Shown: positions 19,633 through 29,776, numbered from the stretch's first letter. The stretch: DNA of 64,000 nt from an uncultured Candidatus Saccharibacteria bacterium (GCA_964357635.1 CAYHLZ010000001.1:133166-197165), one strand, 5' to 3'. A program made the numbers and translations. Notes: generated by a model from the sequence alone, not told the origin.

Positions 19633-19842
19633 TAAAAAATTATGAAGCCCTTAAAAGTAATTGGTTTTTTTCTATTGGCGCCGATTTATATTCCGCTATA
19701 TTTTATTATGAACTTCACCTTTAAGTGGTGGTCAGGTCTGTTAGACGATTAGTTAGTATGCCCCTAGGGGGCCTAAACCCCTCTATTGCGCCTCTCCGGC
19801 GCATCCGCCGAGGAGGCGGAATGGATGTCACAAAAGATATAT

Positions 19843-19855
19843 TGTGCGACACCTA
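19843..19855. repeat. 13-bp direct repeat tgtgcgacaccta (copy 1), upstream of the NUDIX gene
   Basis: Identical 13-mer at 20384..20396. The two copies bracket the NUDIX gene. Confidence 0.6.
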
Positions 19856-19911
19856 TATAATCGGCCAAAGCCACTTCCCCTCGGCACTAAGGAGTAATAT
19901 TATGTAAATCT

Positions 19912-20373
19912 ATGAAGATTGCGACACTTGCTATCATTGTTAAGGGTAATAAAGTGCTACTGGGATATAAAAAGAAAGGCGAAATCGGTACAAATACCCT
20001 AAATGGCCCTGGGGGCAAATGTGAGCCAAATGAGTCCCCTATTAACTGCCTCATACGAGAGACTAAGGAGGAGCTAGATATCACTTTGGATGCCAAATAT
20101 CTTGAAAAAATATCTGTAATTACTTTTTTCTTCGCCGGAGTAGCAAGTTTTGAGGTCCATGTGTTCCGCACAGATAGGTTTGAAGGCACCCCAAAAGAGA
20201 CCGCAGACATGATACCTGACTGGTATGACGTCAATAACCTACCCCTAGACAAGATGCTTGAGTCCGACCGCGAGTGGTTTAGTAAAGCAATACGAGGCGA
20301 AAAATTTAACGCCAATGTTTATTACCGCGCCCGCGCCTCCAACTTCGAAAAAATTGAGTTTTTACCTACCTAA
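19912..20373 (+). CDS. NUDIX hydrolase
   Basis: Nudix box 'GGKCEPNESPINCLIRETKEELDI' (GX5EX7REUXEEXGU). Confidence 0.85.
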   Translation: MKIATLAIIVKGNKVLLGYKKKGEIGTNTLNGPGGKCEPNESPINCLIRETKEELDITLDAKYLEKISVITFFFAGVASFEVHVFRTDRFEGTPKETADMIPDWYDVNNLPLDKMLESDREWFSKAIRGEKFNANVYYRARASNFEKIEFLPT

Positions 20374-20383
20374 TTAACCCCCC

Positions 20384-20396
20384 TGTGCGACACCTA
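20384..20396. repeat. 13-bp direct repeat tgtgcgacaccta (copy 2), downstream of the NUDIX gene at the edge of the AT-rich segment
   Basis: Exact copy of 19843..19855. Confidence 0.6.
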
Positions 20397-20403
20397 GATA
20401 TTA

Positions 20404-20646
20404 TCACTCTGCTGAACCACCTTCTACTGATATAACCTTCATATCTTTACTATTCAAATATATTCTCAACCAATCAATAAATTCAGCAGAGGGTTTAATA
20501 TTTAGATGTGGAAATATTTCCTTCCCTGCCGTAGTTAAATCATAGCAATTTGGAAAATGCCAATTATCATCATCTGACTTTGGTTCAATTTTTACAATAA
20601 TTTCACAATATTTAATTGTAAAAATTGAATTTTTTTCACATTCCAA
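20404..20646 (-). CDS. C-terminal continuation of the upstream ORF in another frame (frameshift at the A7 tract). This is either a pseudogene, a phase-variable gene or a sequencing error.
   Basis: 80-aa ORF that overlaps 20592..20646 of the upstream ORF. A one-nucleotide slip in the A7 run fuses the two into a single protein of about 290 aa. Confidence 0.4.
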   Translation of the reverse strand: MECEKNSIFTIKYCEIIVKIEPKSDDDNWHFPNCYDLTTAGKEIFPHLNIKPSAEFIDWLRIYLNSKDMKVISVEGGSAE

Positions 20647-21272
20647 GATCTTGTATAGTCTCCTGCCTGAATTAACCCTAGGTTCTGTAAATCAAGAAAA
20701 TCAGAGTAATCTACATCAAGCTTCAGTCTTAAATTATAAGCATCTTTTTTCATGCTAAAAAAATCAGCCAGAAATCCATGTTCTTTTAAATAAAAACTAC
20801 CAAAGAAAGACATTTTTTCTAATTCTTTTTTACTAAGTGATTTTAAAATTTGTAACGTACTCATGGAATAAGTGCCCGGTTTATTATATTCTCCAGCTAG
20901 TATCTTCGCTATCACTTCTTGCATCTCATCATTTGAAACCGTTTGAGCATGATCTAATAGACCCCAAAAAACATCATTTTCTATTCCAACCTCGCTCTTT
21001 TTCGCTGGATCGATATACCTTGCTACTTTTGTACCAACATTAATCAAGTTAGCACTTGAACGAAAGGTGCTCACATATTGAAGACCCAAACCTTTCCGTT
21101 TGGCTTCTTCAAAACCCTCTAATATTTGTTTTTTCACTACCTCTCCTTGTGCACCCCACTCGCTAACCTTAAAGCCCAATAATTTATCAATTATTGTAGC
21201 GAAAAATGGAGTGCCAGCCACTTTTGTTGAATTGTTAACAGCGGCTGATAAGGCTGAAGTTGGATCAAACAT
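20592..21272 (-). CDS. Hypothetical protein, N-terminal part of a gene split at an A7 tract; AT-rich, compositionally atypical
   Basis: 226-aa ORF with no recognisable motifs. A -10-like TATATT sits 6 nt before the ATG with no SD. The ORF terminates just after the minus-strand 'gtgaaaaaaattc' run at 20630..20636. Confidence 0.5.
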   Translation of the reverse strand: MFDPTSALSAAVNNSTKVAGTPFFATIIDKLLGFKVSEWGAQGEVVKKQILEGFEEAKRKGLGLQYVSTFRSSANLINVGTKVARYIDPAKKSEVGIENDVFWGLLDHAQTVSNDEMQEVIAKILAGEYNKPGTYSMSTLQILKSLSKKELEKMSFFGSFYLKEHGFLADFFSMKKDAYNLRLKLDVDYSDFLDLQNLGLIQAGDYTRSWNVKKIQFLQLNIVKLL

Positions 21273-21350
21273 GCTAAATATAAAAAATTAAAAAGTAATT
21301 CAACACAAAGTCTATCACATTTAATGCCATAATCTCCCTTACAATAACAC

Positions 21351-21377
21351 AAACCCCGCCTTGCGGCGGGGTTTGGT
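21351..21377. terminator. Bidirectional intrinsic terminator aaaCCCCGCCttgcGGCGGGGttt
   Basis: Perfect 7-bp GC stem flanked by A3 and T3-GG-TTT. It lies between the SLT gene and the AT-rich gene. Confidence 0.7.
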
Positions 21378-21384
21378 TTAAGGA

Positions 21385-21792
21385 TTATCTCCTTGCGATT
21401 TCAGATTGGCTGAACTTAGCCCAACAGGCGGATGAGGACATCCAAGGCTTGGCTCCTTGCTTCTCGTAGAGATAACGTGCATATTTCACGTTATCATCAA
21501 GATCATGGACATCCAAACCCATCTCCTCTGCATCCTCGGCGTGATACAAGACGTTAATCTGCATCACTCCTCTGTCAAAGCTATTTTCCTCCCCTCTTAA
21601 GACATTACCTTTAGAGTTGAAGTGACGGTAATGCGACTCGCATCCTGCAATCTTGGCAAGGACGGGAATATCGGCGAAGTAATCATTAATGAATCTTTCA
21701 ATATTCTTAGAATCTGTAATCGGCTGATAGTCTTCTGACTTGACCTCCCTAGGTGCCGGTTCTACCGCCACCACTCTTCCCGTCGGTAACAC
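21385..21792 (-). CDS. Lytic transglycosylase (SLT/lysozyme-like domain), probably secreted. The true start likely lies upstream near 21858 with a non-ATG initiation codon.
   Basis: 'AGCESHYRHF...DRGVMQINVLYH' are the SLT catalytic Glu and GLMQ-type motifs. The in-frame upstream peptide 'LQLTTISLLLSLSSSAVDVL' looks like a signal peptide. Confidence 0.65.
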   Translation of the reverse strand: MLPTGRVVAVEPAPREVKSEDYQPITDSKNIERFINDYFADIPVLAKIAGCESHYRHFNSKGNVLRGEENSFDRGVMQINVLYHAEDAEEMGLDVHDLDDNVKYARYLYEKQGAKPWMSSSACWAKFSQSEIARR

Positions 21793-29302: not shown

Positions 29303-29776
29303 ATGTCACTTCACCAAGATATTCGCCAAGAAATGACAGAGGCGATGAAAGCCAAAGATGCCTTATCTTTAAACGTTTTACGGGGACTCCTATCAAGCTT
29401 TACTAATGAAGCAGTTAGCAAAAAAAGAAAGCCAGATGAAGAACTTTCTGACGAAGAAGCACTTACCGTCATCAGTCGCGCTGTTAAACAGAGAAAAGAT
29501 TCTATCTCTCAATTTGAAAAAGGAAATCGTGCTGATTTGGCAGAAATAGAAAAATTAGAGCTCAAAATTCTTGAAAAATACCTCCCCGCCCAGCTCTCTA
29601 AAGAGGAAATTTCGGCCTATGTAAAGTCTAGACAAGCCGAACTTAATATGACAGATTTTTCCAAGAAAAATATCTTTATGGGTACGATAATGAAAGAATT
29701 AAAGGGTAAAACCGACGGCGCGCTCGTTAAGGAGGTTATTGACTTGGTCTTCTCCCCAGATTTTCCTTCCAAATAG
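29303..29776 (+). CDS. GatB/YqeY-domain protein
   Basis: 'LRGLLSSFTNEAVSKKRKPDEELSDEEALTVISRAVKQRKDSI' is YqeY-like. The ATG lies 7 nt downstream of a TATAAT at 29291..29296 with no SD, so the transcript is possibly leaderless. Confidence 0.8.
   Translation: MSLHQDIRQEMTEAMKAKDALSLNVLRGLLSSFTNEAVSKKRKPDEELSDEEALTVISRAVKQRKDSISQFEKGNRADLAEIEKLELKILEKYLPAQLSKEEISAYVKSRQAELNMTDFSKKNIFMGTIMKELKGKTDGALVKEVIDLVFSPDFPSK

Follow-up and report, generated by a model that had tools for sequence, protein, structure and literature searches.

The window, by which is meant the whole 64,000-nucleotide stretch of DNA analysed here, carries a gene of the DUF2806 family whose reading frame is broken by a single base. 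It is probable that this gene is a recently inactivated, horizontally acquired defence-type cassette, lodged in a hypervariable intergenic hotspot for insertions in the genome of a groundwater member of the Patescibacteria. A DUF2806 cassette of approximately 0.92 kb, bringing along its own AT-rich 5' region, would have been inserted between a conserved region encoding a small membrane protein and a lysozyme-like gene. The intact ancestor would have encoded a protein of approximately 289 aa, with helices in its long N-terminal part and a beta/alpha domain at its C-terminus. Deletion of a single base at codon 214, either an A from a run of eight or the G from AAA AAA GAT, would then have left the present product of 226 aa, which is predicted to lack most of the C-terminal domain.

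The broken gene and its family

The gene consists of two open reading frames (ORFs) on the minus strand, one frame apart, that meet at GTGAAAAAAATTC. The 5' ORF (21272..20592) encodes 226 aa, of which residues 1-213 are authentic and the last 13 constitute an out-of-frame tail; it is identical to the database protein P0001, annotated as ‘DUF2806 domain-containing protein [Patescibacteria group bacterium]’. The 3' ORF (20646..20404), in the -1 frame, encodes 80 aa from a TTG codon and contributes the authentic C-terminal 76 residues from 20633 downwards. The frameshift site itself, at 20630..20636, is a run of seven A (A7) on the coding strand, within GTG AAA AAA ATT C, and accordingly T7 on the plus strand. 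As the initial annotation had recognized, the frame is broken at this A7 and a one-nucleotide slip joins the 226-aa and 80-aa ORFs; insertion of one base at the run gives a fusion of 289 aa. The DUF2806 reading frame is interrupted at 20630-20636 not only in the window but also in the four other contigs compared.

The identity of the missing base can be approached through the family. Addition of an A at the site gives V-K-K-N-S, while addition of a G instead (AAA AAA GAT TCA) gives V-K-K-D-S, which is the family consensus, and of the eight closest homologues, seven carry Asp at the frameshift position (K-K-D-S). The simplest history would be that the GAT codon lost its G, with the A7 run created as a scar of the deletion. 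Alternatively, an Asp-to-Asn change would have made a run of eight A (A8), followed by slippage, a history that would require two steps, the second of them fast. Intact relatives have no A-run at this site, reading GAG AAA GAT AAA, AAG AAG GAT GAA and similar. Past the break, the 76 residues align without gaps with 36 intact homologues and keep the conserved P241, G250, H256, L257, W268 and L269. Because these downstream codons are still open and the conserved residues have been kept, the lesion would be recent. As an observation in its own right, a pristine downstream frame fits recency and also continued use through slippage.

The gene had been described as an orphan with no recognisable motifs, a view that is overturned by its clear family membership. 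The fusion matches the Pfam model DUF2806 (PF10987) with an E-value of 9.1e-20 and a score of 71.9 bits, the cut-off being 24.5, and the match extends over residues 89-269, equivalent to profile positions 30-220 of 221, so that it spans the break. Among 5.8 billion protein clusters, 229 homologues were found; of the 120 matches listed, nearly all are intact and about 283 aa in length, with 88-100% of the fusion covered. Patescibacteria groups account for almost all source names of the closest matches, and labels of Bacteroidetes begin at about 41% identity among the matches listed. The closest intact relative, P0002, is 71% identical, and no intact allele closer than that is present in the 5.8 billion protein clusters; an alignment-based metagenome scan gave 64 loci, P0002 not being among them. 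The fusion aligns end to end with the 36 intact homologues, with no gap across the break, and this alignment has 17 invariant columns, including the motifs NDVFWG and AKI(I/L)AGEYNxPG. The DUF2806 model is matched by all 37 aligned relatives. The protein is not a member of TIGR03899 (NCBIfam), to which it gives only a partial match (residues 83-151) that reaches 65 bits, where the cut-off is 155.65.

In a confident AlphaFold2 model (pLDDT 88.7, pTM 0.82), the N-terminal residues 1-197 of the fusion are helical and residues 201-284 form a beta/alpha domain, the part encoded by the 3' ORF having a pLDDT of 92-96. On this model, the frameshift at residue 213 is shown to remove most of a well-folded C-terminal domain. 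A structure search with the model gave no informative match among solved structures, and one phage-encoded structural relative (BFVD A0A291AUV8, E 9e-11).

Composition, edges and site of the insert

The segment at 20384-21300 has a GC content of 33.0%, compared with 42.7% for the 64-kb window, which is the minimum among all 917-bp windows of the stretch and lies about 3.2 SD under the mean. Its trinucleotide distance from the window corresponds to z = 3.5, and GC3 is 0.27 and 0.17 in the two parts of the DUF2806 gene, against 0.44-0.50 in neighbouring genes. Comparison with the 64-kb window bears out the impression of the initial annotation that the block is more AT-rich than its surroundings, and shows it to be compositionally unusual. 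The GC of the DUF2806 gene is 11-14 points under that of its flanks in three of four loci compared and 1.4 points under in the fourth. The DUF2806 unit as such covers roughly 20404-21330 (about 0.92 kb, minus strand), with the stop codon at its left junction. Atypical composition is thus combined with a presence/absence polymorphism at a conserved site, the two features by which a genomic islet is recognized, and the evidence supports the view that the block is a compositionally foreign, horizontally acquired single-gene insert.

The polymorphism is evident from four relatives (L008-L011) that have a common backbone, in the order GltX, M23, hyp75, a gap, the lysozyme-like gene, hyp135, L27, L9 and Ctp, and whose M23 peptidases are 59-74% identical to that of the window. 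The content of the gap is what varies. In the window, it measures 1,752 bp and holds a NUDIX gene and the broken DUF2806 gene; in L009 (about 2.3 kb) and L010 (about 2 kb), it is occupied by pyrE/pyrF-like genes; and in L011 (5.4 kb), by pyrE, pyrF, a murF-like gene, a tyrosine recombinase and a 190-aa ORF. L008, the closest relative, has a gap of about 270 bp and no gene comparable to the cargo of the window, and the comparison suggested earlier has therefore located the same site without the block. Because this site is empty in L008, both the DUF2806 and the NUDIX genes are placed in an insertion hotspot. Alignment with L008 further identifies 19633-19855 as backbone, a stretch that holds the motif GTCACAAAAGATATATTGTGCGACA and a conserved ORF for a small membrane protein of 36 aa. 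DUF2806 homologues are solitary at all loci examined, flanked by wide intergenic gaps and unrelated housekeeping neighbours.

The neighbouring genes had been listed as a NUDIX hydrolase and an SLT-domain transglycosylase, of which the former is secure and the latter weak. The MutT-like NUDIX gene (19912..20373, plus strand; Pfam E 1.5e-11) has a genome-typical GC content of 43% and is a second, independent occupant of the variable site. Unlike most genes of the window, it is preceded by a leader with a strong AAGGAG. In its homologues, GC-rich terminators stand directly past the stop codon, and its own terminator seems to have been truncated where it meets the second copy of a 13-mer repeat. 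A role for the NUDIX protein as functional partner of DUF2806 was considered and rejected, as homologues of each occur in unrelated contexts. On the other side, the lysozyme-like gene (21792..21385, minus strand) matches SLT_3 with an E-value of 0.012 only, under the Pfam cut-off.

Both elements that had been proposed to bound the block do exist, and neither does so. The exact 13-mer TGTGCGACACCTA occurs at 19843-19855 and 20384-20396 on the plus strand, within copies that extend to 17 bases with one mismatch. The first copy (19843..19859) forms the end of the backbone motif GTCACAAAAGATATATTGTGCGACA, and the second (20384..20400) stands directly past the NUDIX gene, 4 nt from the DUF2806 stop codon, so that the two bracket the NUDIX gene and not the block. 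GATATTATCAC, which follows the second copy, matches GATAGCTATTCTCAC in L008. As a boundary or attachment site of the DUF2806 block, the 13-mer was rejected, there being no third copy at the other end of the block. The only common sequence at that end is a short TATCAC, which could be a matter of chance. The GC-rich hairpin at 21350..21375 (minus strand; 11 pairs and a 4-nt loop) is likewise genuine as the intrinsic terminator of the lysozyme-like gene; since L008 keeps it at its empty site, without the block, it belongs to the lysozyme-like gene and the backbone.

The 5' region of the DUF2806 gene (21273..21330, minus strand), with a GC content of 22%, is carried with the gene. It contains TTGAAT (21303-21298), the best -35-like hexamer, then a 15-nt spacer and TATATT (21282-21277), followed by TAGC and the ATG, with no Shine-Dalgarno (SD) motif. 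In the closest homologues, TATAAT or TACAAT stands 6-9 nt ahead of the ATG, and a leaderless design for this DUF2806 subfamily is plausible from these sequence features. The earlier proposal of a leaderless promoter holds with respect to the missing SD motif, but the distance between TATATT and ATG is 4 nt and not 6, and the arrangement is not distinctive in this genome: an SD motif precedes 4 of the 53 large ORFs of the window, and many show TATAAT 6-9 nt before the ATG. Because SD-less starts are usual here, a leaderless-type start is no mark of a foreign block.

Nature of the frame break and its alternatives

The 226-aa product P0001 is on record in six contigs. Four contigs from separate sample assemblies were compared, two from ENA (R2 and R3, replicate filters of Hainich groundwater well H41) and two from Logan (ERR3858120 and ERR3858121, separate runs), representing two pipelines in all. 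They are 99.98-100% identical to the window and free of gaps, and the only two differences fall in the M23 and GltX genes. At the assembly level, A7 is present at the frameshift site in all four contigs. As A7 is the sole allele in every assembly examined, the locus is better regarded as a freshly inactivated gene than as a demonstrated on/off switch.

Immediately beside the A7/T7 run, and abutting it, is a perfect 15-bp inverted repeat at 20584..20629, with arms at 20584-20598 and 20615-20629 and a 16-nt loop. It is the longest perfect hairpin (loop of at most 20 nt) in the 64-kb window, and an equivalent hairpin at the position of the break is absent from the homologues examined. In the mRNA, the hairpin begins 1 nt past the heptamer G_AAA_AAA and recalls a stimulator of -1 frameshifting, except that the spacing is wrong and the stem AU-rich, with 2 G-C pairs. 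Read on the plus strand, it precedes U7 and resembles an intrinsic terminator, and because the terminator of the NUDIX gene is apparently cut off, such an element on this strand could matter. The hairpin might have promoted the deletion during replication. That it touches the A7 run is a feature for which a simple model of decay offers no explanation.

Interruptions have also been found elsewhere in the family. Examination of about 60 family loci revealed three further ones with one premature stop each in an otherwise open frame: TAG at codon 220 in L092, 7 codons from the break of the window; TGA at about codon 202 in L146; and TGA at the invariant Trp103 in L147. An alternative genetic code was considered for the interrupted homologues and rejected, as it fits only a further locus, L108, where six TGA codons, all at glycine columns, indicate code 25 and an intact gene, and not the window, L092, L146 or L147. 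Three of the four lesions of the family are at residues 200-220, the junction of the helical and C-terminal domains, which hints, from four cases, that splitting or silencing of the protein may occur preferentially at this junction.

Several other readings of the break have to be weighed. It is extremely improbable that the break is a sequencing or assembly artefact and that the real gene is intact. Homopolymers are classic error sites and the coverage of the public contigs is low (5-9x, from contig names), but the same A7 recurs in four contigs, four sample assemblies and two pipelines. Moreover, there are 32 A/T runs of at least seven in the window and the other 31 are without a frame break (29 lie within open frames of 100 codons or more, and two are spanned by none), which argues against a systematic homopolymer error. 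A phase-variable contingency gene, off with A7 and on with A8 through replication slippage, would keep a costly defence gene active in part of the population. Genes of this kind, with homopolymer tracts, are known from Neisseria, Haemophilus, Campylobacter and Helicobacter, and the present one resembles them in that an accessory, probably costly gene loses its frame at a mononucleotide run. Addition of an A restores a full-length protein that folds well in the model, the downstream frame is pristine, and the tested member of the family is toxic, so that stochastic silencing could be advantageous; A/T runs of eight are rare (4 in 64 kb), suggesting instability or counter-selection. Nevertheless, phase variation is judged unlikely. 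A8 is found in none of the four contigs, and there is no intact allele on record. The tract, at seven bases, is short for a contingency tract and, in contrast to known contingency genes, does not vary in length among assemblies, is absent in relatives and may stem from the deletion itself, and the 31 other runs of at least seven are unbroken. The most parsimonious ancestor (KKDS, AAA AAA GAT) had no A8 run either. The initial annotation, which proposed a phase-variable or decaying gene in an accessory or defence-type islet, had itself named reads uniformly supporting A7, together with intact relatives lacking the frameshift, as evidence for a pseudogene rather than a phase-variable gene. At the level of assemblies, this is what the four contigs and the relatives without an A-run display, and the islet and the decay are retained while phase variation is not.

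Programmed recoding would rescue the frame at the level of expression, either through -1 frameshifting on G_AAA_AAA, stimulated by the hairpin, or through transcriptional slippage on A7, and would supply a trickle of toxic full-length protein. A -1 slip on G AAA AAA indeed gives V-K-K-N-S in the correct frame, the longest perfect hairpin of the window is 1 nt past the heptamer, and the downstream frame is fully conserved. The canonical spacer of -1 frameshifting, however, is 5-9 nt, compared with 1 nt here, and the stem is AU-rich with 2 G-C pairs. G_AAA_AAA is non-canonical, being no classic X_XXY_YYZ site, and A7 is short for efficient transcriptional slippage. On the plus strand, the hairpin with T7 is equally like an intrinsic terminator for NUDIX read-through. 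Since run and hairpin are found in no homologue at this site, they are not a conserved recoding signal, and recoding appears very unlikely. Also to be given little credence is a functional split gene, which would produce two polypeptides, or the N-terminal 213 residues alone, for instance as a detoxified or differently regulated variant. The clustering of three of the four family lesions at residues 200-220 favours it, as does L092, where an ATG stands one codon past the premature stop and a 63-aa gene is called. The cases are four only, though, one of them at residue 103; the sole start of the 3' ORF of the window is a TTG within the upstream ORF, with no obvious initiation signal; and in more than 95% of the family the protein is a single polypeptide. 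A bolder idea, a long shot in our estimation, is that A7 and the hairpin together act on a toxic abortive-infection gene as a -1 recoding signal, or as an antisense or terminator element by which silencing of this gene is linked to the convergent NUDIX transcript. If true, a defence gene gated by recoding or antisense would be described for the first time in Patescibacteria, and the junction at residues 200-220 would be suggested as a regulated breakpoint in the DUF2806 family.

Likely function and significance

The preferred reading, that of a recently inactivated defence-type cassette, draws its functional part from Belisama, a single DUF2806 protein encoded by a cassette of the chromosomal integron of Vibrio cholerae (bioRxiv 10.1101/2024.07.02.601686). 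At a low phage dose, cultures with Belisama are protected, while at a high dose they undergo unrecoverable lysis with phage amplification blocked; over-expression of the protein is toxic, and its homology to Abi-alpha is detectable (bioRxiv 10.1101/2024.07.02.601686). The criterion that the authors applied was blastp homology to the V. cholerae protein (bioRxiv 10.1101/2024.07.02.601686). The gene of the window agrees with the Belisama type in that it is a single gene with a DUF2806 domain, is solitary at every locus examined and has no conserved partner. Both are stand-alone DUF2806 proteins, and both belong to solitary, mobile single-gene units. They differ in host, which is Pseudomonadota in the case of Belisama and Patescibacteria here, and in setting, an integron cassette versus a locus with no integron; furthermore, the copy in the window is frameshifted. 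The putative link of its subfamily to Belisama is one of shared Pfam domain membership.

A relationship to Abi-alpha, an abortive-infection family often found in prophages, would be remote homology at best. Abi_alpha (PF14337) matches weakly, in the central helical region, 11 of 37 family members (best E 4.5e-4), and the protein of the window gives an E-value of 0.12 and 12.7 bits, under the gathering threshold of 29 bits. The defence models of PADLOC (2023), a library older than Belisama, give no match, and none of the 37 family members is matched in PHROGs. With tblastn, plasmids yielded no relatives and phages a single weak match, in Sinorhizobium phage phi3LM21. By analogy with Belisama, the intact ancestor most likely was a stand-alone abortive-infection-type anti-phage protein, harmful when active. 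The toxicity of Belisama offers a plausible reason for the frequent inactivation of DUF2806 genes, and the repeated recent losses are consistent with rapid turnover of a costly gene.

Taken on its own, the specific finding is modest, being a pseudogene and a new, broken representative of a domain family already known. Classical phage-defence systems are believed to be few in the Patescibacteria, whose genomes are tiny. In these organisms, solitary DUF2806 genes are widespread, compositionally foreign and recurrently freshly broken, all of which fits a costly abortive-infection gene with rapid gain and loss. If so, a very recently described defence family, Belisama, would extend to distant and poorly studied bacteria, and the clean hotspot, with an empty site in a relative, would be usable for studying the uptake of single genes in reduced genomes.

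A repeat-bracketed NUDIX unit in the hotspot

The variable gap between hyp75 and the lysozyme-like gene, the insertion hotspot of the backbone, carries in the window a 541-bp unit encoding the MutT-like NUDIX protein (19912..20373, + strand), and this unit is bracketed by two copies of a direct repeat at 19843-19859 and 20384-20400, identical over 13 bp and over 17 bp with one mismatch. In L008, a relative whose site is empty, there is one repeat copy only (L008 11775-11787). The pair has the look of a duplicated target or core site, left by the insertion of a single-gene NUDIX cassette, and the pattern would equally fit a deletion between the repeats in L008. The backbone also includes a conserved small hydrophobic ORF of 36 aa (19642-19752; MKPLKVIGFFLLAPIYIPLYFIMNFTFKWWSGLLDD), which fell below the 40-aa minimum of the window ORF list and has a near counterpart in L008 (MKVLKITAFFLLAPIYVPLYFLMNFTFKWWSGLLDD).

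Two Logan contigs matching the window, L003 and L004, end at window positions 20432 and 20373, respectively, both no more than ~60 bp from the point where the 3′ end of the DUF2806 gene meets the 13-mer. These ends could represent strain-level variation at the junction, or could merely reflect low coverage of AT-rich sequence. Across the whole window, the only region exceeding the DUF2806 block in trinucleotide atypicality is 1600-2500. Two genes lie there, for a 169-aa polytopic membrane protein and then a 621-aa secreted, lipase-like protein, and the bias is therefore probably that of hydrophobic coding sequence and not the mark of an island.

Initiation and termination signals

Within the whole window, an SD-like motif precedes only 4 of 53 large ORFs, and in many ORFs TATAAT lies 6-9 nt 5′ of the ATG, for example at 29303, 14586, 62157(-), 29282(-), and 24287(-); leaderless initiation seems to be the default mode of the source genome. 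Upstream of the NUDIX gene, a strong AAGGAG (within 19888-19914) is located 7 nt, the optimal spacing, from a two-codon ‘start-stop’ ORF, ATG TAA (19902-19907), and the NUDIX ATG follows 4 nt past this ORF, 17 nt from the SD. Because the SD-to-ATG distance is normal in NUDIX homologues of other loci, this arrangement may be a translational control element.

Directly 3′ of the NUDIX stop lies TTAACCCCCC (20374-20383), and then the 13-mer. Since the NUDIX homologues in L158 and L160 have full GC-rich terminators immediately past the stop, the terminator in the window appears to have been cut off at this junction, and the NUDIX transcript would therefore be predicted to run antisense into the convergent DUF2806 gene.

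Interrupted DUF2806 homologues

In a DUF2806 homologue of 61% identity, found in two samples (L092 5001-5855, and L093), codon 220 is an in-frame TAG; the break in the window gene lies 7 codons away. The 63 codons beyond this TAG are open and conserved, beginning at an ATG one codon on. The homologue in L108 (3001-3860) contains six in-frame TGA codons, and as every one falls at a conserved glycine column, a host using genetic code 25, of the Gracilibacteria or Absconditabacteria type, is indicated.

Hotspot cargo in relatives

Variants of the repeat motif occur in L010 at 13376, adjoining variable cargo, and in L011 at 5896, shortly 5′ of the ATG of a tyrosine recombinase. In three relatives, pyrE/pyrF-like genes occupy the same hotspot (L009 6900-9250, L010 11500-13500, and L011 2500-8000), which in L011 additionally holds a murF-like gene, the tyrosine recombinase, and a 190-aa ORF; therefore, even pyrimidine-synthesis genes behave as movable cargo at this site.
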